DNA from: a bacterium
GTDB lineage: Bacteria; Patescibacteriota; Minisyncoccia; UBA6257; JAGOQP01
Direction of reading: 5' to 3'
Assembly (NCBI GenBank): GCA_021812345.1
Contig: JAKANP010000003.1
Coordinates: forward strand, 82-64,081
Length of the DNA: 64,000 nt
The notes below the pieces were generated by a model. It searched no databases, was not told where the DNA came from, and saw only the letters and a list, made by a program, of their open reading frames with translations. This document shows, piece after piece, positions 27,107 to 63,105 of this stretch. Both the position numbers and the translations under genes were made by a program. Every line of letters begins with the position of its first letter. The first letter of the stretch is position 1.

Positions 27107-27225
27107 ATTTTTCTTTCTTAATAATTAACTTGTCAATTTTTATAGAAAGTTGACTAGACTTTATATAAATTTATTTGCGCCGTTGATTTATTTTTTTCTC
27201 CAAAACTATTTAATTTTTCTTACAT

Positions 27226-27245
27226 GGTGCCCGGGGAGAGACTCG
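27226..27245 (-). other. 19-nt duplicate of the tRNA-Leu(CAA) 3' end (CGAGTCTCTCCCCGGGCAC)
   Basis: Exact 19-mer match to nt 27380-27398 in same orientation, 133 nt downstream of the intact tRNA; here followed by an encoded CCA. Confidence 0.8.
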
Positions 27246-27378
27246 CCTACAAATCCTCCCTCGTCAGTCACTCGGTCGGCTCGCAGGCCACCCCTCGTCC
27301 CGACTTATCGGGACTGCGGTCTTCAAGTCCTCCACGCAAGCAGAGCGGTCTGCTTGCTCCAGTCACTAACTTCGTTAG

Positions 27379-27462
27379 TGCCCGGGGAGAGACTCGAACT
27401 CTCAAGACCTTGCGATCACAGGATTTTGAGTCCTGCGTGTCTACCAGTTCCACCACCCGGGC
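27379..27462 (-). tRNA. tRNA-Leu(CAA)
   Basis: Reverse complement gives GCCCGGGTGGTGGAACTGGTAGACACGCAGGACTCAAAATCCTG...GAGAGTTCGAGTCTCTCCCCGGGCA; 7-bp acceptor, anticodon loop CTCAAAA, long variable arm, 84 nt. Confidence 0.85.
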
Positions 27463-27506
27463 ATATTTAAGCTATCTATTATTTTTTATTATTAACAATG
27501 AGCGAA

Positions 27507-27556
27507 GTCAAGGCGGGCGGGAGTCCTGCGCGTCTGCCAATTCCGCCACCCCGGCT
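27507..27556 (-). other. 5' fragment of a tRNA-Leu-like gene (truncated pseudo-tRNA)
   Basis: Reverse complement GCCGGGGTGGCGGAATTGGCAGACGCGCAGGACT matches acceptor/D-arm/anticodon-stem of tRNA-Leu, then diverges. Confidence 0.55.
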
Positions 27557-27625
27557 TTTTTCTTAATTTGTAAATTGATAATACCTCGTTTTTTGGCTAT
27601 AATCAACTTGTTAAATATAAAATTT

Positions 27626-28438
27626 ATGACTCGAGTTATCGCTGTTTGTAATCAAAAAGGTGGAGTCGGAAAAACAACAACCTCAATAAATCTTGGCGGT
27701 TATTTAGCGGCTTTGGGAAAAAAAGTTTTAATTATTGATTTTGATCCGCAAGGAAACGCATCTTCGGGATTGGGATTTTCTCCAAGATTTTTAAAAGAAA
27801 GTGTTTACCATGCCTTGTTCGGATATGCTCATCATGAATCGGTTATAAAACAATCTTCTTTAATAAATCTTCACGTGATGCCGGCAAGTCCGGATTTGGC
27901 AGGAGCGCTGGTGGAGCTGGTTGATGTTCCGGAAAGAGAATTTGTTTTAAAAAAATTAATCAATCGTTTGCGTCATGATTATCACTACATACTCATAGAT
28001 CTTCCGCCCAGCTTGAGTTTACTGACTGTTAACGGATTAGTTGCTTCCGATGAGGTTCTAGTGCCTATTCAAGCCGAATATTACAGCTTGGAGGGCTTGG
28101 GACAGCTTTTGGAAACGATAGAAATGATAAATAAGAATTTAATGACCGATATAAAAGTAACCGGAGCCATAATTACCATGTTTAATAAAAGAGAAACCTT
28201 AAGCCGAGAAGTTGCCCGTGATGTGAGGCGTCATTTTCCTTATCATGTTTTTCAAGTTGAAATTCCTCGTTCAATTTCTCTGGCTGAAAGTCCGAGTTTT
28301 TCAAAGCCGGTTATTCTTTATGATCCGTCTTCTCCCGGAGCCAGAGCTTATGAAACGTTGGCAAGAGAAGTTATCGCTCAAGAAAAAAATGAATACGGCG
28401 CGATGTTGAATAGCGGATTTGGAAGCGTTATTATGTGA
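27626..28438 (+). CDS. parA: Chromosome partitioning ATPase ParA/Soj
   Basis: MTRVIAVCNQKGGVGKTTTSINLG deviant Walker A; start at internal ATG 27626 (upstream part of the long ORF overlaps the tRNA region). Confidence 0.9.
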   Translation: MTRVIAVCNQKGGVGKTTTSINLGGYLAALGKKVLIIDFDPQGNASSGLGFSPRFLKESVYHALFGYAHHESVIKQSSLINLHVMPASPDLAGALVELVDVPEREFVLKKLINRLRHDYHYILIDLPPSLSLLTVNGLVASDEVLVPIQAEYYSLEGLGQLLETIEMINKNLMTDIKVTGAIITMFNKRETLSREVARDVRRHFPYHVFQVEIPRSISLAESPSFSKPVILYDPSSPGARAYETLAREVIAQEKNEYGAMLNSGFGSVIM

Positions 28439-39786: not shown

Positions 39787-40452
39787 ATGAATCCTTTGGG
39801 TAAAGTTAAAATCAAATGGTCTCCGAATTTTGCTTACGCGATTGGGTTGATAGCGACAGACGGAAATTTATCATCAAATGGCAGATGTATTGTTTTTACG
39901 TCAAAAGACTTGGAAATGATAAATAATTTTTTAAAATGTCTATCTGTATCTTCAAAAATAAGCATGAAGGCTAGGAGCAATGAGAAAGAGAAGAAGTATT
40001 ATTATGTTCAGATCGGGGATATAAATTTCTATAAGTTTCTGAATTCTATTGGACTTACTCCGGCAAAATCAAAAACTATCGGAATTATTAACATACCTGA
40101 CAAATATTTCTTTGATTTTTTGCGGGGACATTTTGATGGGGATGGCACTTCCTATTCTTATTGGGATAAGCGTTGGAAATCAAGCTTCATGTTTTATACA
40201 GAGTTCATATCGGCCAGTAAAAAACATATTGATTGGCTTAGGGGCGAAATTTCTAAAAAAATTGGAATCAATGGGCATATAACAAAATCAAAAAATAATT
40301 CAGTTTATCAATTAAAATATGCGAAAAGAGAGTCTACAAAATTGATTTCAAGAATGTACTATGGTAAAAAGGTTGTATGTCTTTCTAGAAAAATAGAGAA
40401 AATCAAAAAGGCATTAGCAATAAATAAAGTTGAAGATGCCCAGGTGCTGTAA
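39787..40452 (+). CDS. Free-standing LAGLIDADG homing endonuclease (double motif)
   Basis: Two LAGLIDADG motifs: YAIGLIATDGNLS and FLRGHFDGDGTSY, 221 aa; not inside an obvious intron or intein host; 3' end overlaps tRNA-Leu(GAG) by 15 nt. Confidence 0.8.
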   Translation: MNPLGKVKIKWSPNFAYAIGLIATDGNLSSNGRCIVFTSKDLEMINNFLKCLSVSSKISMKARSNEKEKKYYYVQIGDINFYKFLNSIGLTPAKSKTIGIINIPDKYFFDFLRGHFDGDGTSYSYWDKRWKSSFMFYTEFISASKKHIDWLRGEISKKIGINGHITKSKNNSVYQLKYAKRESTKLISRMYYGKKVVCLSRKIEKIKKALAINKVEDAQVL

Positions 40453-40521
40453 CTGGTAGCCAGGCCAGCTTGAGGTGCTGGTGTCCGCAAGGACGTGGAG
40501 GTTCGAGTCCTCTCCTGGGCA
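40438..40521 (+). tRNA. tRNA-Leu(GAG)
   Basis: GCCCAGGTGCTGTAACTGGTAGCCAGGCCAGCTTGAGGTGCTGGTGTCCGCAAGGACGTGGAGGTTCGAGTCCTCTCCTGGGCA; anticodon loop TTGAGGT, long variable arm. Confidence 0.8.
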
Positions 40522-40558
40522 CAAAACAAAACAGCCAAATAGGCTGTTTTGTTTTGTG
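40522..40558 (+). terminator. Strong hairpin immediately 3' of tRNA-Leu(GAG)
   Basis: acaaaacaaaacagcc-aaat-ggctgttttgttttgt, 16-bp perfect stem. Confidence 0.6.
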
Positions 40559-40720
40559 CAGGAAGCAGGTAAATTTATTTGCTTGTGTGAGGATTCGAAC
40601 GACGGAGTATGTGCGAGCCAGCAGGCGAGCGCACGAGTCGGTGCCCAGCCCGAGCTGAGCGACTGGCGAAGCGAGAGGCGAGGGTAAATCCCTTACCTGC
40701 CGGTAGGCAGGTCTCCTGGG

Positions 40721-41050
40721 TACTACTTCGCTCCTACTTCGTAGAAACTTCGTAGGACGCGGTAAAGCTTCGTAGCACAAAGCACTACTTTGCTCCTACT
40801 TCGTAGAAACTTCGTAGGACGCGGTAAAGCTTCGTAGCACAAAGCACTACTTTGCTCCTACTTCGTAGAAACTTCGTAGGACGCGGTAAAGCTTCGTAGC
40901 ACAAAGCACTACTTTGCTCCTACTTCGTAGAAACTTCGTAGGACGCGGTAAAGCTTCGTAGCACAAAGCACTACTTCGCTCCTACTTCGTAGAAACTTCG
41001 TAGGACGCGGTAAAGCTTCGTAGCACAAAGCACTACTTTGCTAAAGCTTC
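40721..41050. repeat. Tandem array of 5.2 near-identical 62-bp units with phased TTCGTAG-type subsites (iteron-like)
   Basis: Unit CTCCTACTTCGTAGAAACTTCGTAGGACGCGGTAAAGCTTCGTAGCACAAAGCACTACTTTG repeats without spacers; each unit has three exact CTTCGTAG plus one degenerate copy with start-to-start spacings 11/11/20/20 bp. Confidence 0.9.
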
Positions 41051-41115
41051 TTTTTTTAATAGAGCAAAACATAAAATAGGCCCATCACGGTCTATTTTTG
41101 ATTTTATTTATCAAC

Positions 41116-41144
41116 TTGACACAAGTAATAATATGTGCTAGTAT
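41116..41144 (+). promoter_or_regulatory. Sigma70-type promoter (TTGACA-17-TAGTAT) upstream of the GC-rich ORF
   Basis: Core TTGACACAAgTAATAAT nearly identical to the promoter at 42154; followed by SD AGGGAGG 6 nt before ATG 41249. Confidence 0.5.
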
Positions 41145-41248
41145 TTGCTCATAATCGGGGGATGAGGGATTGTCCCAAAATTCTACCGATACAGCACTCA
41201 ATGTTTTAATGTTTTTGTCCCGATGGGAGTCGGGGCAGGGAGGTCACA

Positions 41249-42025
41249 ATGGAAGCGATGGAGAGAATCAAGGGTTTGATGGACGAGAAGGCCGTCGAGA
41301 AGTGGGCCGGTGAGTTCGGGACCTGGAAGGACAAGATGGTCCACGAGCTCGCCAACGAGCTGTCCAAACGAGGGTTCTCCTCCGAGAACCCGGCAGCGGC
41401 AAAGGACGTCAAGGCGGCCGAGCAGTTTCTGGCCGCCAAGAGGCAGCTCGTGGAGGCGAAGGTCGACGAGACCTTCACCCCCGAGAACATCGCCGCCGCA
41501 CATCTGGACTGCATCATCAAGGTCCAGGTGGATGAGACGCAGGAGTTTCGTGTCATCTGTCAGTCGCCTCGTCACGCCGGGGCGAACATGGCAGTTCTCC
41601 CGACCCAGAAGTTCATCGTCCGCAAGAACGCGGACGGCGAGCTGACTCGGATGTGCCACCAGGGCACATCCGAGGCGATCGTCACCGGCGACTTCCTGGT
41701 CACCGGGGAGGGGCGGATCATGCGCTTCTGTCCCTTCTGCAAGGACAAGGCGATCGCCGCCGCCCGCGAGCGTGGCGAGAAGTTGACGTTCTACCGCCTC
41801 GGCGAGGCGGTGAACAAAATCTCCCGCATCCGGGAGAACGAGGCGCGCGAGGCCGAAGAGAACGCCAAGCGCGAGGCTGAGGCCGAGCGGATGGAGCACT
41901 CGGCTTCCCGACAGATCGCCGGCAAGCGCGTGGACTCCCGACGCGCCGACTTCAACCGTCGGCACACCTCCGGACTCAAGCGTGCCAGCGGAAAGTTGGC
42001 CCGCGATCTCATGAGCGAAGACTGA
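41249..42025 (+). CDS. Orphan GC3-rich protein (foreign-looking), Cys motif FCPFC
   Basis: 258 aa; coding region about 62% GC with strongly G/C third positions in a 35% GC genome; good SD; terminator at 42088; no recognisable domain; the antisense ORF 41198-42046 is a high-GC artefact. Confidence 0.6.
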   Translation: MEAMERIKGLMDEKAVEKWAGEFGTWKDKMVHELANELSKRGFSSENPAAAKDVKAAEQFLAAKRQLVEAKVDETFTPENIAAAHLDCIIKVQVDETQEFRVICQSPRHAGANMAVLPTQKFIVRKNADGELTRMCHQGTSEAIVTGDFLVTGEGRIMRFCPFCKDKAIAAARERGEKLTFYRLGEAVNKISRIRENEAREAEENAKREAEAERMEHSASRQIAGKRVDSRRADFNRRHTSGLKRASGKLARDLMSED

Positions 42026-42087
42026 GTGAAAGCACTCTCTCTTCACTAAATTGACCCTGGAGGAGTCAATAGTGAAGGGAAAAAATC

Positions 42088-43082: not shown

Positions 43083-43110
43083 GTCCCGGTAGTTTCCGGG
43101 ACTTTTTTTA
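43083..43110 (+). terminator. rho-independent terminator
   Basis: gtcccggtagtttccgggacttttttt. Confidence 0.7.
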
Positions 43111-43234
43111 TTTAAAATAATTTTATCAAGCATCTTACAACCGTAGGATGCCTGATAAATTAATATTAACGCATAATCATTTTTTGCCTTTTTGTAAAAT
43201 TTTATTTAAAATAAAATCATCTAAAATAAAAATT

Positions 43235-44380
43235 ATGAAACGAGAAAATATTGTCGCCAAAGATCAAACAAGCGAAAAATTGCTCAAGGAAATAGAAAAC
43301 AAAAACGATATTAAAAGTGAAAGAATTAAAAGGCTTTTGGCAATGCCGGATCTTTCACGAAAAATAAATTCTCCGCTTAAATTTATTATTGACGCCATTC
43401 TGGCTCTGCCGATTTTCAAAGATTTTGATATTTTGGAATTTCCGGAAATTGTAAGTGTTCGGGATAATTTTGATTTGTTAAATGCCCCCGCCGAACATCC
43501 CAGCCGAAAAGAAACCGATACTTATTATGTTGACGTAAATCATGTTTTGCGAACTCAAACTACGGTTATGTGGCCGTTTTATTTACAGCGTCCTGAAGCG
43601 ATAGAGCAACTTAAAAAAGAAGGAGAAATAGGATTGTTGAGTTACGGAAAAGTTTTTAGAAAAGATGAAATAGACAGAAGTCATTTTCCGGTTTTCCATC
43701 AGATAGACGGACTTTATATTTGCAAAAAAGAAAAGAAAATAATCGGCATCCCGGAACTTCAGGAGGTCTTAACTGCCATAACGAAAGCTATTTATGGAGA
43801 TATAGAATACAAATTTTTGGAAGACAGTTTTCCTTTTACAAATCCAAGCACTCAAATTGAAATAAAATCAAAAGATGTTTGGCTTGAAGTTGTCGGCGCC
43901 GGAGTGGTTCACACTCAGGTGCTAAAGAATCTTAATATTGATCCGGAAATTTATAACGGATGGGCATTCGGATTCGGCTTGGAGCGTCTGGCGATGATAA
44001 AGAACGGTATCAACGATATCAGAGTTTTTTGGTCCAACGACGAAAGGATTGCCGGACAATTTAAAGATATAAATAGTCAATACAAAGAAGTAAGTAAGTT
44101 TCCGATGACTTATCGCGACATTTCATTTATTATAAATAAGGATACGAGTTTGAATAATTATTACGAAATTGTCCGTGATTGCGCCGGTGATTTAGTGGAA
44201 GAAGTTAAAATGACCGACAAATATGAAAATAATCAAAAATTCGGTCCGGATAAAATAAGTTATACTTTCAGAATTACCTATCGCTCTCCGGAAAGGACGC
44301 TCACCAACGAAGAAGTAAATTTGATACAAGAAAAAATTATTGAAAAAACAAAACAAGAGATAAACGCTGCCGTGCGTTAG
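43235..44380 (+). CDS. pheS: Phenylalanine--tRNA ligase, monomeric type: PheS catalytic core fused to C-terminal FDX-ACB anticodon-binding domain
   Basis: Class II motifs (HPSRKETDTYYV...LRTQTT; FPFTNPSTQIEI...WLEVVGAGVVH; AFGFGLERLAMIKNGINDIRVF) followed by PMTYRDISFII...ISYTFRITYRSPERTLTNEEVN, which matches the FDX-ACB fold normally at the PheT C-terminus; no pheT in window. Confidence 0.8.
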   Translation: MKRENIVAKDQTSEKLLKEIENKNDIKSERIKRLLAMPDLSRKINSPLKFIIDAILALPIFKDFDILEFPEIVSVRDNFDLLNAPAEHPSRKETDTYYVDVNHVLRTQTTVMWPFYLQRPEAIEQLKKEGEIGLLSYGKVFRKDEIDRSHFPVFHQIDGLYICKKEKKIIGIPELQEVLTAITKAIYGDIEYKFLEDSFPFTNPSTQIEIKSKDVWLEVVGAGVVHTQVLKNLNIDPEIYNGWAFGFGLERLAMIKNGINDIRVFWSNDERIAGQFKDINSQYKEVSKFPMTYRDISFIINKDTSLNNYYEIVRDCAGDLVEEVKMTDKYENNQKFGPDKISYTFRITYRSPERTLTNEEVNLIQEKIIEKTKQEINAAVR

Positions 44381-45755: not shown

Positions 45756-47063
45756 ATGAAAAAATATTTTGCCGGCAATTTTGGAGTTATTTTGGTTTTT
45801 GTCGCTTCTTTATTGCCGGCGATTTTTTGGATTTTTCAGGAATCAATCGGAATCAGATTTTCCGGAACGTTCTCCACTTTCAGAAGTTTTGGCCAATTAT
45901 TCGGATTAGTTGGGATAAGTATGTTTGCTGTTTCTCTTTTTTTAAGCGCTCGACTTAAATTTTTTGACAAATATTTTGACGGATTAAGCAGGGCGTATGA
46001 TTTACACCATTTTTTGGGGGGATTGGCTTTCGTGTTTATTCTTTTTCATCCTTTATTTTTGGCGTTGGCTTATTTTTCTGTGACGCCGTCTCTGGCTTTG
46101 AGTTTTTTATTTTTTCCGTCGACGATGGCTGTCAATTATGGAAGAATAGGATTTTTAATAATGTTCATTTTGCTTATTTTGACTTTTTATTATAGAACTT
46201 CCATTAAATATCAAAATTGGAAATTATCCCATAAATTGCTGGGTGTCGCTTTTTTCTTCGGCGGACTCCATTCTTTTTTTATAACAAGCGATATTTCAAC
46301 CAATATGCCGTTGCGTTGGTATATTTTAATTTTATCAGCGGTAGGGATCGCGGCTTATTTTTACAGAACCTTATTGTATCCTTTTAGTGTAAGGCGTTAT
46401 CTTTATAAGGTGTCGGCAATAAAAAAAATAGGGGACGACGTTGTTGAAATCACCATGGTTCCGATCGGAGAAAAGATTAAATATCAAGCCGGACAATTTG
46501 CATTTTTGAGTTTTCAAAGCAATTCCGTGAGCAAAGAACCCCATCCATTTTCTTTGACTTCGCGCCCTGAGGATGATTTTATTCAAATCGGGGTGAAATC
46601 TTCAGGCGATTATACAAAGCATTTAATTAATTTATCCATAGGAGATACGGCTGAAGTCGAAGGAGCATTTGGAATTTTTTCTCCGGAAAAATCAAAAAAT
46701 AGAAATCAGATTTGGATTGCCGGTGGAATAGGGATAACTCCCTTTGTAAGCGTGGCGCGAAGTTTGAATTGGAAAAATTTCTCCGTCGATTTGTATTATT
46801 CTTTCAAAGAAGATGGAGATGGAGTTTATTTGAAGGAACTCGAGGAAATTTCGGAAAAGACCGATAATTTAAGAATTGCCCCGTGGATTTCTCAAAAAAT
46901 GGGAAGAATAGACGCTTCCAAAATAAAAAGAGTAAGCGATAAAATCGAAGAGAAAGTTATTTTTATTTGCGGTCCGTCGGAAATGATAATTGCTTTAAAA
47001 AAAGATTTTATCAATAATGGAGTTTTGAAAGAGAATATTTTTAGTGAGGAATTTAATATGTAA
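45756..47063 (+). CDS. Ferric-reductase/NOX-like transmembrane flavoprotein (FRD domain + FAD/NAD(P)-binding)
   Basis: 6 TM helices with conserved His pairs, HPFSLTS FAD-binding motif, GGIGITPF NAD(P)H-binding motif. Confidence 0.7.
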   Translation: MKKYFAGNFGVILVFVASLLPAIFWIFQESIGIRFSGTFSTFRSFGQLFGLVGISMFAVSLFLSARLKFFDKYFDGLSRAYDLHHFLGGLAFVFILFHPLFLALAYFSVTPSLALSFLFFPSTMAVNYGRIGFLIMFILLILTFYYRTSIKYQNWKLSHKLLGVAFFFGGLHSFFITSDISTNMPLRWYILILSAVGIAAYFYRTLLYPFSVRRYLYKVSAIKKIGDDVVEITMVPIGEKIKYQAGQFAFLSFQSNSVSKEPHPFSLTSRPEDDFIQIGVKSSGDYTKHLINLSIGDTAEVEGAFGIFSPEKSKNRNQIWIAGGIGITPFVSVARSLNWKNFSVDLYYSFKEDGDGVYLKELEEISEKTDNLRIAPWISQKMGRIDASKIKRVSDKIEEKVIFICGPSEMIIALKKDFINNGVLKENIFSEEFNM

Positions 47064-47071
47064 GGAATAAT

Positions 47072-47479
47072 ATGACAAAAAAAATTGTATCAATTTCGCT
47101 TTTTATATCGTGGACCATTTTGGTGATTTTTATAACCGCAGGACTTTTTTCTTTTGGAAATAAACCCAATCAATCCTCTTCCGGTGTTCAACCAAATAAG
47201 ACAACTCCTGTTTCTTCATCGACTGCAACAGCCGGCAATACTTCTATTAAAAGTTATTCATTAAACGAAATTGCCAAACATAATAATCAAAATGATTGCT
47301 GGATGGCAATTGGTGGAAAGGTTTATGATGTTACTTCTTTTATCGGATCTCATCCCGGAGGAGAAAGAGCAATTTTGAGTGGTTGCGGAAAAGATGCCAC
47401 AAACGCTTTTGATAGCCGTCATTCTCAGGCGGCATTTGATTTACTACCTCAATTTTTTATCGGAAATCTAAATTCATAG
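47072..47479 (+). CDS. Membrane-anchored cytochrome b5-like heme-binding protein
   Basis: N-terminal TM helix; cyt-b5 heme-binding block WMAIGGKVYDVTSFIGSHPGGERAIL...GKDATNAFD. Confidence 0.7.
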   Translation: MTKKIVSISLFISWTILVIFITAGLFSFGNKPNQSSSGVQPNKTTPVSSSTATAGNTSIKSYSLNEIAKHNNQNDCWMAIGGKVYDVTSFIGSHPGGERAILSGCGKDATNAFDSRHSQAAFDLLPQFFIGNLNS

Positions 47480-54292: not shown

Positions 54293-54868
54293 ATGCCAAA
54301 ATTGAGTCCGAGAGTTAAAATAAAAACAGATACAAGAGAGTACAAATTACTCTCTTTTCTCAATGAAGTTGAGAGTGTGATTTTAGATGCGTTTTTCCCC
54401 AAAAAATATCCAGAAGCTGCGTTGTGGAGAGATTTTTTTGGTATAGATTATAAGAATGATATGGATAATAATAAAATAAATTATTTTATATCAAAAACTT
54501 TGGTTCGTTTAAAAAATAAGGGGTTAATTTCAAAAAACGGCTCTACTAAAAAATCAATTTGGAAGATAAATAATGAAGGGAAGAAGATCTTATATTCATT
54601 AAATCGTTTATCTTTACCAAAAAAAGATGGTAAAACTCGCCTAGTTATTTTTGATATTCCGGAAATAAAAAAATATTGCAGGCAATGGATCAGAGATGAA
54701 TTGATCAGACATAATTTTAAAATGCTTCAAAAGAGTGTCTGGATAGGGCAAAGACCATTATCTGAAGAAGTTTTAAGGCACGATAATATGAAAAAAATTA
54801 TTGACAATGTTCACATCCTTGAAATAAAAGATTTAGGCACTTTAGAAAATATTGATTTTGAAGATTAA
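54293..54868 (+). CDS. Winged-helix plus Cas2/PaaX-C-like domain protein (putative regulator)
   Basis: N-terminal wHTH-like (LVRLKNKGLISKNG...SIWKIN); C-terminal RLVIFDIPEIKKYCRQWIRDELIRHNFKMLQKSVW resembles the Cas2-like LVxYDV...R..L...G.R.Q.SV pattern. Confidence 0.45.
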   Translation: MPKLSPRVKIKTDTREYKLLSFLNEVESVILDAFFPKKYPEAALWRDFFGIDYKNDMDNNKINYFISKTLVRLKNKGLISKNGSTKKSIWKINNEGKKILYSLNRLSLPKKDGKTRLVIFDIPEIKKYCRQWIRDELIRHNFKMLQKSVWIGQRPLSEEVLRHDNMKKIIDNVHILEIKDLGTLENIDFED

Positions 54869-62345: not shown

Positions 62346-62376
62346 AACCGTCCCAATTTATCGGGACGGTTTTTTA
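62346..62376. terminator. Bidirectional terminator between mltB-like gene and prfA
   Basis: aaaaaccgtcccaatttatcgggacggtttttt. Confidence 0.6.
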
Positions 62377-63105
62377 TTGCTGTTTAGAAAATTCTTTGAT
62401 TATAGGATCCAGGTCGCCGGCTATTATTTTTTCTATGTTGTGAAATTTTTTACCTATGCGATGGTCGGTTACGCGATCATCGGGGAAATTGTATGTTCTT
62501 ATTTTTTCAGAACGTTCCATTGAACCGATTTGTTCTCTTCTTAGTGCTCCCAAGGAGCTGGCTTGCTGGCGCTGCATTTCTTCGTAAAGCTTTGAACGCA
62601 AAATAGTCAGCGCGCTTTCTTTGTTGGCGTTTTGAGAACGTTCGGTCTGGGAAGCGACAACAACTCCGGTAGGTTTGTGTAAAACTCTCACTGCCGTTTC
62701 AACTTTATTGACGTTTTGTCCTCCGGGTCCCGACGAGCGGAAAAATGAAATTTCCAAATCGTTTGGATTTATTTCAAAAACTTTTTGTTCCACTACCGGA
62801 AGTATTGCCACTGAAGCGGTTGAAGTATGGACTCGTCCGGATTTTTCTGTTGCCGGAACTCTTTGAATTCTGTGGACTCCGGATTCATGTTTCAAAGCTT
62901 CGTAAACTCCGGCTCCCTCCATTTTTCCGATAAAAGTTTTATATCCGCCAAGAGTTGTTTGGTTTGAATCAATAACAGAAAATTTCCAGTTTCTTTTCTG
63001 GGCATATTTTTGGTACATATTAACCAATTCACCGGCAAAAATTGAGGCCTCGTCACCACCAGCTCCGGCTCGTACTTCTATGATTATTTTGTTTATATTA
63101 TCCAT
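62374..63105 (-). CDS. prfA: Peptide chain release factor 1-like, lacking N-terminal domain 1
   Basis: PxT-type motif RVPATEKSGRVHTS (RF1 specificity), GGQ motif SGPGGQNVNK; begins at the equivalent of E. coli RF1 residue ~105 (IIEVRAGAGGDEA); only 97 nt separate it from rpmE. Confidence 0.75.
   Translation of the reverse strand: MDNINKIIIEVRAGAGGDEASIFAGELVNMYQKYAQKRNWKFSVIDSNQTTLGGYKTFIGKMEGAGVYEALKHESGVHRIQRVPATEKSGRVHTSTASVAILPVVEQKVFEINPNDLEISFFRSSGPGGQNVNKVETAVRVLHKPTGVVVASQTERSQNANKESALTILRSKLYEEMQRQQASSLGALRREQIGSMERSEKIRTYNFPDDRVTDHRIGKKFHNIEKIIAGDLDPIIKEFSKQQ

Follow-up and report, generated by a model that had tools for sequence, protein, structure and literature searches.

Can a bacterium make do with a one-chain phenylalanyl-tRNA synthetase (PheRS)? 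Textbooks single PheRS out among aminoacyl-tRNA synthetases as an exception: outside organelles it is described as an obligate (alpha-beta)2 heterotetramer with the editing site in its beta subunit. The 64-kb stretch analysed here (the window, from contig JAKANP010000003.1 of a Patescibacterium) raises this question through a gene at 43235-44380 on the forward strand, whose 381-amino-acid (aa) product was originally predicted to be a monomeric, mitochondrial-type PheRS, in which the catalytic core of the alpha chain PheS is followed by the FDX-ACB anticodon-binding domain of the beta chain PheT. As set out below, this gene probably encodes a self-sufficient, non-editing, single-chain PheRS that resembles the mitochondrial enzyme (mtPheRS) and serves as the only PheRS of a cell of the Parcubacteria/Paceibacteria type.

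A PheS-type core and an FDX-ACB domain in one chain

Both halves of the predicted fusion lie in one chain and score above their Pfam thresholds. The core (PF01409, tRNA-synt_2d) covers aa 47-276 at 188 bits (2.1e-55; gathering threshold, GA, 19.8) and FDX-ACB (PF03147) covers aa 287-381 at 86.2 bits (2.1e-24; GA 31.1), the latter being a match on which the prediction had been made to hinge beforehand. The two peptides quoted with it, PMTYRDISFII and ISYTFRITYRSPERTLTNEEVN, both occur in the open reading frame (ORF).

43235..44380, forward strand: single-chain PheRS gene, 381 aa plus stop, PheS-type catalytic core fused to an FDX-ACB domain
43235..43372, forward strand: short N-terminal region, aa 1-46, standing in place of the PheS coiled coil of about 100 aa; PF02912 not detected
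43373..44062, forward strand: class II catalytic core, PF01409, aa 47-276, 37% identical to E. coli PheS aa 108-327
43646..43714, forward strand: motif 2 region GKVFRKDEIDRSHFPVFHQIDGL, aa 138-160, with R142, H150 and F154-H155-Q156 at least 98% conserved in 201 members
43829..43849, forward strand: Phe-binding strand FPFTNPS, aa 199-205, aligned with E. coli F248-P-F250-T251-E-P-S
43958..43996, forward strand: motif 3 GWAFGFGLERLAM, aa 242-254, with A244 aligned to the E. coli specificity residue A294 and R251 invariant
44093..44377, forward strand: FDX-ACB anticodon-binding domain, PF03147, aa 287-381, matching the C-terminal B8 domain of bacterial PheT

In the alignment to E. coli PheS, the core keeps motif 2 (fRKDEIDRSHFPVFHQ), FPFTxPS and motif 3 (GWAFGFGLERL), bearing out the class II PheS motifs claimed at the outset. 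The residues of the Phe pocket (FPFTxPS, GWAFG) are identical to those of E. coli PheS, with Ala at the A294 specificity position, and Phe is the probable substrate. Across 201 family members, R142, H150, F154-H155-Q156, F199, P200, T202, S205, G242-W-A-F-G246 and R251 are each conserved in at least 98%, as are the FDX-ACB signatures R294-D-I-S-F298 and R354-T-L, save R354 itself at 96%; the longer signature R354-T-L-T is conserved in 96% or more. The N-terminal coiled coil of PheS, first described as reduced, is in fact absent: Pfam does not find PF02912 in the 381-aa protein, and the 46 residues that precede the core fold into two short helices and bear the family-specific motif R-x-K-R-L-L-A-L-P-D-L-x-R-K.

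Among the NCBIfam models, the top match of the protein is SrmL (NF051887; 261 bits, below the cut-off of 300). It falls 8 bits short for mitochondrial PheS (TIGR00469, pheS_mito; 250.4 bits, cut-off 258.35), reaches 181 bits for bacterial pheS (TIGR00468; cut-off 237.45) and matches pheT (TIGR00472; 80.4 bits, cut-off 402.65) over its C-terminal 110 residues only. A relative with 52% identity (P0121) passes the pheS_mito cut-off at 264.3 bits. The protein thus has an intermediate position among the curated NCBIfam families and clears the cut-off of none, which explains why the named members of the family are labelled 'hypothetical protein' at NCBI, whereas the Joint Genome Institute (JGI) uses the name 'PheRS alpha chain'.

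The best solved relative by both sequence and fold is human mtPheRS, in line with the organellar, monomer-type architecture proposed originally. It is the best sequence match in the PDB (5e-57, both domains covered), and an AlphaFold2 model built from a 13-sequence alignment (mean predicted local distance difference test score, pLDDT, 89.9; predicted TM-score, pTM, 0.85) places it first in a Foldseek comparison with the PDB (3cmq, 5mgv, 8p8x), with a query TM-score (TMq) of 0.78-0.79 and a root-mean-square deviation of about 3.1 Å over about 388 columns. The predicted model superposes along the whole chain and suggests that both domains adopt the 'closed' arrangement of mtPheRS, whereas canonical PheS chains match the core only (TMq about 0.54).

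With mtPheRS (human FARS2, PDB 3CMQ/3TUP; yeast Msf1; TIGR00469) the protein thus shares the one-chain class II core with a C-terminal, B8-like FDX-ACB domain, the lack of both a coiled-coil N-terminus and an editing domain, and the fold of the whole chain (TM 0.79, 31-32% structural-alignment identity). It differs in being encoded on a bacterial chromosome with no presequence, in missing the insertion of about 30 residues that splits the human alignment in two, and in having its own conserved 46-aa N-terminus and, in the alignment, a short insertion after RTQTT; it also scores below the TIGR00469 cut-off and branches outside the eukaryote/virus group (see below). Relative to the canonical bacterial (alpha-beta)2 enzyme (TIGR00468 plus TIGR00472), with which it shares 37% core identity, identical Phe-pocket residues and a C-terminal domain homologous to PheT B8, the protein lacks the PheS N-domain and PheT B1-B7, including the B3/B4 editing site, and carries its anticodon domain in cis on the alpha-like chain.

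As a plausible mechanism, the PheS-type active site would activate Phe with ATP and transfer it to A76 of tRNA-Phe, and the C-terminal ferredoxin-fold domain, as a homologue of PheT B8, would read the GAA anticodon. By analogy with human mtPheRS, the enzyme is expected to act as a monomer whose anticodon domain swings from the closed to an open position to bind tRNA. With no PheT B3/B4 editing domain, Tyr-tRNA-Phe would not be cleared in cis.

Distribution, rate and relatives of the fused family

A word-indexed protein search returned 5,749 protein clusters at E <=1e-10. The best 120 of these all combine PF01409 with PF03147 at 70-99% identity, most of them with a length of about 383 aa, and their named members are Patescibacteria, Paceibacterota, Wolfebacteria or Portnoybacteria. 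In GTDB, the fused gene is present in at least 567 species genomes, essentially all of them Parcubacteria/Paceibacteria-type Patescibacteria. The best 80 of these relatives, whose loci were analysed over 1.2 Mb in total, span Paceibacter, Moran-, Harrison-, Lipton-, Zambryski-, Taylor-, Yanofsky-, Staskawicz-, Giovannoni-, Jorgensen- and Nomurabacteria as well as Minisyncoccia, with odd taxon labels on a few metagenome-assembled genomes (MAGs). Conservation of the fused PheRS over hundreds of related species points to a lineage-wide simplification. Identity to the three nearest GTDB genomes is 72%, 72% and 68.5% for PheRS, compared with 69%, 62% and 60% for the adjacent GAPDH and with 57% and 43% for a nearby pseudouridine synthase. 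PheRS therefore evolves at the pace of its housekeeping neighbours or slower, a rate that suggests an essential gene under strong constraint rather than an accessory paralogue. Our literature searches found no publication on a single-chain PheRS in the Candidate Phyla Radiation (CPR) or on a lineage-wide bacterial form, and the Minisyncoccus, Parcubacteria-streamlining and Kantor 2013 papers are silent on PheRS. Mitochondria have long provided examples of this kind of enzyme, and a bacterial fused paralogue, SrmL, has recently been modelled by curators; a bacterial form shared by a whole lineage appears to be undescribed in print.

When 1.84 billion cluster representatives were searched exhaustively with HMMER, 319 clusters matched at E <=1e-30; names, NCBIfam scores and gene contexts sort them into four groups. 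The first is the Patescibacteria family with a few outliers, e.g., one 'Oligoflexia' MAG. The second is SrmL (NF051887, 402-415 bits), found in Actinobacteria on large contigs of 3-6 Mb (Kocuria, Microbacterium, Kibdelosporangium) and in some Patescibacteria, including a Giovannonibacteria genome. The third group is made up of mitochondrial enzymes of eukaryotes (Schizosaccharomyces Msf1, Salpingoeca, Vitrella). The fourth comprises viral forms of about 350 aa (about 345-355), which lie above the pheS_mito cut-off at 264-310 bits; P0534 and P0147 are examples. They sit on phage-like contigs of 160 and 341 kb, and pheS_mito-type genes occur on 42 IMG/VR contigs, among them phage contigs of 200-536 kb and giant-virus MAGs; the loci concerned are L086 8001-9047, L087 8001-9065 and L089-L130. 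The huge-phage and giant-virus enzymes share with the window protein a fused architecture outside organelles but are shorter, pass the pheS_mito cut-off and group with eukaryotes instead of the Patescibacteria clade.

We compared these forms in a crude neighbour-joining tree (348 columns, 100 bootstraps, only four canonical PheS sequences as outgroup). All fused forms separate from the four canonical PheS with a bootstrap of 91. SrmL forms a clade (bootstrap 100) with the window protein outside it; the Patescibacteria family (bootstrap 70-74) stands apart from the eukaryote/virus group, and the two bacterial clades are weakly supported sisters (bootstrap 68). The eukaryote/virus group has a bootstrap of 23, and the deep order is not resolved by the tree. 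The phylogeny against FARS2 and bacterial PheS that had been proposed as a check on the original prediction thus places the window protein with the fused enzymes and away from canonical PheS but does not nest it among mitochondrial sequences. One origin of the fusion would agree with this tree, which gives no direction of transfer. Two sequences first taken as canonical PheS (P0197, P0224) fell among the eukaryotic forms.

SrmL, the 'PheS-related mystery ligase', is likewise a bacterial fusion of a PheS core with FDX-ACB, of about 350-420 aa. It differs from the window protein in forming its own clade and in its patchy occurrence in Patescibacteria, and the window protein fails its 300-bit cut-off. 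The large actinobacterial genomes that carry SrmL presumably hold a normal PheST as well. In one example, a true SrmL of 402 bits (L003 605-1741) is followed on the same strand, up to 11741, by two unknown proteins of about 740 aa, an RVT_1 reverse transcriptase, a 564-aa unknown and a PLD-like protein, surroundings that resemble an island of accessory or defence genes more than a translation operon.

Sole PheRS, partner or paralogue

The proposal that the fused enzyme is the only PheRS of its cell depends on the whereabouts of pheT and of any second pheS. A tblastn search with E. coli PheS and PheT finds nothing in the 64-kb window besides this gene, the sole PheT match being the C-terminal B8 region on the fused gene itself, and B3_4, B5 and tRNA_bind domains are found neither in window ORFs of at least 150 aa (Pfam scans, gene tables) nor in 9 kb of extra contig. 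The original statement that no pheT lies adjacent holds both here and at the loci of the 80 related genomes. Neither the B3-B7 region of PheT nor a second PheS was found in the 1.2 Mb of those loci, a weak result in that only about two chance sightings would be expected over this length.

A published inventory bears on the question at the level of whole genomes. Anantharaman et al. 2016 (PMC5079060, Supplementary Data 4) give per-genome counts of 'Phenylalanyl tRNA synthetase alpha', and we compared eight tabulated, near-complete genomes, each of which is shown here to carry the fused gene.

Wolfebacteria RIFCSPLOWO2_01_FULL_38_11 (P0029): PheS-type count 1
Wolfebacteria RIFCSPHIGHO2_01_FULL_48_22 (P0069): PheS-type count 1
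Giovannonibacteria RIFOXYD1_FULL_48_21, 5 scaffolds, 99.9% complete (L058): PheS-type count 1
Liptonbacteria 53_13 (L033): PheS-type count 1
Yanofskybacteria 41_21 (L046): PheS-type count 1
Yanofskybacteria 45_19b (L084): PheS-type count 1
Nomurabacteria 42_17 (L076): PheS-type count 1
Zambryskibacteria 43_14 (L034): PheS-type count 2

One PheS-type gene is thus listed for seven of the eight relatives. If the fused gene was counted there as 'alpha', as JGI names it, these seven genomes have no canonical pheS with which a PheT could pair.

Several points weigh against a sole, self-sufficient PheRS. The window protein lies under all three NCBIfam PheRS cut-offs (pheS_mito, pheS, SrmL). The inventory has no row for PheRS beta, its counts depend on the plausible premise that the fused gene was scored as 'alpha', and Zambryskibacteria 43_14 has two PheS-type genes. 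The organism studied here is represented by one contig of 86,643 bp (ENA ERZ27237563 k141_253405), and a pheT could lie elsewhere in its genome. Trans factors may also compensate for the lack of editing. Even so, we consider a single-chain enzyme that acts as the cell's only PheRS the probable reading of this locus.

The CPR as a whole are not uniform in this respect. B2 is missing from many CPR PheRS-beta proteins (Mukai et al., PMC5370408). It follows from the existence of such proteins that some CPR possess pheT. These pheT-bearing CPR are probably Microgenomates. The canonical PheS sequences closest to the query (P0258, P0266) lie on non-CPR Gram-negative contigs, with pheT not adjacent. 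An argument that PheRS-beta had been dropped from the 43-gene CPR marker set since CPR lack it was discarded as void, the 51-gene parent list not being known to have contained beta. In the inventory (PMC5079060, Supplementary Data 4), two PheS-type genes are listed for Zambryskibacteria RIFCSPHIGHO2_02_FULL_43_14 (L034) and 39_82, and one for most Parcubacteria; the second Zambryskibacteria gene may be a paralogue of the SrmL type, such as P0449 of a Giovannonibacteria genome, or else a canonical pheS.

A possible remnant of PheT occurs in sister lineages and raises the alternative of a true PheRS that needs a small partner in trans. In 12 of the 80 related loci, an ORF of 130-155 aa (about 140 aa; mini-beta hereafter) lies directly upstream of the fused PheRS gene (L031 9545-9970 of Moranbacteria GW2011_GWE2_35_2-, L012, L013, L018, L028, L042, L055, L071, L073, L074, L080 and L085). 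Its product shares 35-45% identity with E. coli PheT aa 1-160 (B1-B2), has the PheT-like start MKFxxxWLK and contains tRNA_bind (PF01588) as its only domain; among NCBIfam models, the pheT N-terminus gives the best raw match, and the YtpR cut-off is passed. The family numbers at least 471 clusters, and no more than 4 of the 12 loci have tyrS as a further neighbour, which makes PheRS its constant neighbour. Mini-beta may be a leftover, free-standing PheT module, perhaps acting in trans, and as such would agree with a beta subunit that was dismantled step by step; the degree of minimisation varies within the group, given the sister lineages that retain the B1-B2 module. A mini-beta encoded elsewhere in the genome could then serve the window protein, and its position directly upstream of PheRS in those loci speaks for such a partnership. 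Yet neither this window nor the remaining 68 loci contain a mini-beta gene or tRNA_bind domain, and mini-beta, which passes the cut-off of the generic tRNA-binding YtpR model, may be a general tRNA chaperone. Moreover, human mtPheRS works without any such partner. On this evidence we regard dependence of the window protein on a trans partner as unlikely.

The window protein could also be a paralogue with another, SrmL-like function, encoded beside a normal pheS-pheT pair located elsewhere. SrmL is its best NCBIfam match and has the same two-domain build, and SrmL does occur both in large actinobacterial contigs and in some Patescibacteria. Its 261 bits nevertheless fall short of the 300-bit cut-off that true SrmL proteins clear at 402-415 bits, and the SrmL clade leaves out the Patescibacteria family, which is far more widespread and conserved than SrmL and keeps all Phe-pocket residues. 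The surroundings differ too, since the SrmL example described above has a reverse transcriptase and large genes of unknown function as neighbours instead of housekeeping genes, and the one PheS-type gene listed for seven of eight relatives in the published inventory is in each case the fused one. Taken together, these data make an SrmL-like paralogue improbable.

That the gene is foreign, whether acquired recently from a eukaryotic, giant-virus or huge-phage donor or introduced through assembly or binning contamination, is suggested by its mitochondrial nearest characterised relatives and by the pheS_mito-type genes on the 42 IMG/VR contigs with phage and giant-virus MAGs among them, but is barely credible for a gene of local G+C (37-38%) that sits between bacterial housekeeping genes on a contig shared with rpoB, rpoC, parAB and type IV pilus genes, keeps its GAPDH synteny in related genomes and belongs to a Patescibacteria clade apart from eukaryote and virus sequences.

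Beyond the single-chain, non-editing PheRS favoured for this organism, a wider scenario can be sketched, which we offer tentatively and hold to be possible though rather doubtful. Throughout the Parcubacteria/Paceibacteria radiation, in thousands of species, a non-editing single chain would have taken the place of the otherwise universal bacterial (alpha-beta)2 PheRS, with PheT dismantled stepwise (B8 fused to alpha, B1-B2 kept as mini-beta in some orders, B3-B7 lost); the bacterial, SrmL, viral and mitochondrial forms would descend from one ancient fusion, and mtPheRS, instead of being a eukaryotic invention, would have come ready-made from bacteria or viruses. The bac120 set of phylogenetic markers includes both pheS and pheT. 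If a major bacterial radiation does rely on a non-editing single chain, completeness and marker schemes that expect pheT are biased against single-chain genomes, the lineage offers a natural, free-standing system for the cost of Tyr-for-Phe mistranslation, and the origin of mitochondrial PheRS becomes approachable with a large bacterial and viral sister group. A compact PheRS that looks naturally orthogonal may also serve engineering.

Start codon, neighbouring genes and other features of the window

The ORF finder reports a 410-aa ORF at 43148-44380 on the forward strand, and the ATG at 43235 is internal to it. Two flanking signals bear on the choice of start.

43083-43109, forward strand: intrinsic terminator of the upstream gene, GTCCCGG-loop-CCGGGAC, a 7-bp G+C stem followed by T7
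43184-43212, forward strand: promoter-like site TTGCCT-17-TAAAAT, a consensus match only, 23 nt 5' of the 43235 ATG

We prefer 43235, the start given in the original prediction, because the 120 closest homologues measure 376-422 aa (nearly all 376-400, mostly 382-388) and begin with M-x-K-R-x-Y/I, because the terminator would set the PheRS transcription unit apart from the upstream gene, and because the promoter-like site lies downstream of the 43148 ATG. The 43148 start chosen by gene callers was rejected, since its ATG sits between the terminator and the promoter-like site and homologues are shorter. Rfam finds no T-box or leader RNA upstream of the PheRS gene. Downstream, a 33-nt gap is followed by a 100-aa ORF and then GAPDH, and pentose-phosphate genes also follow; the nearest GTDB genomes show the same order of PheRS and GAPDH. 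A promoter-like site of its own and GAPDH and pentose-phosphate neighbours fit a housekeeping gene.

G+C content is 34-40% in nearly every 2-kb bin of the window. The window also encodes type IV pilus genes, NAD-ligase, TsaD, FtsW, rpoB, rpoC, SSB and parAB, along with RelA/SpoT, topA, dprA, L19, L25, RF1, GAPDH, rpiB, rpe, transketolase and FBA.

Upstream of the PheRS gene, a free-standing LAGLIDADG_3 homing-endonuclease-like ORF of 221 aa (39787-40522) ends 15 nt inside tRNA-Leu(gag) (40438-40522). It is followed by a G+C-rich stretch (40580-40720) with the tRNA-T-arm-like sequence GGATTCGAAC, in which neither ARAGORN nor Rfam calls a tRNA gene, and, just downstream of that stretch, by a 62-bp tandem repeat (40722-41042; 5.2 copies, 98% identity) with an internal CTTCGTAG sub-repeat. 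A near-identical ENA contig (L001, 99.98-100% over aligned blocks) has about 1.2 repeat copies, a 248-bp difference, so the repeat number varies between assemblies or populations. A G+C-rich island follows at 41198-42046 (the bin 40,001-42,000 is at 50% G+C against a background of 37%), with long ORFs on both strands, of 258 aa (forward) and 282 aa (reverse). The 258-aa ORF has no Pfam or NCBIfam match and no relative in the 80 related loci, and the island may be foreign DNA beside tRNA-Leu(gag).

Elsewhere in the window, a release factor on the reverse strand (62374-63105) has an RF1-type PAT motif and GGQ but only 243 aa and starts at position 100 of the PCRF profile, which means that domain 1 is missing; L31 (rpmE) lies immediately upstream and leaves no space for a missing N-terminal exon. 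A 191-aa protein with a PaaX_M/Cas2-like domain is encoded at 54293-54868, with no CRISPR array or other cas genes in the window. The ParA ORF (27224-28438, forward strand, 404 aa) overlaps tRNA-Leu(caa) (27378-27462, reverse strand) and its ATPase domain begins at residue 136; the real parA start is probably downstream of this tRNA. At 45756-47479, a NOX/ferric-reductase-type membrane flavoprotein of 435 aa (Ferric_reduct, FAD_binding_8, NAD_binding_1) is followed by a small cytochrome b5 gene, a eukaryote-like pairing that is unusual for a fermentative CPR genome.

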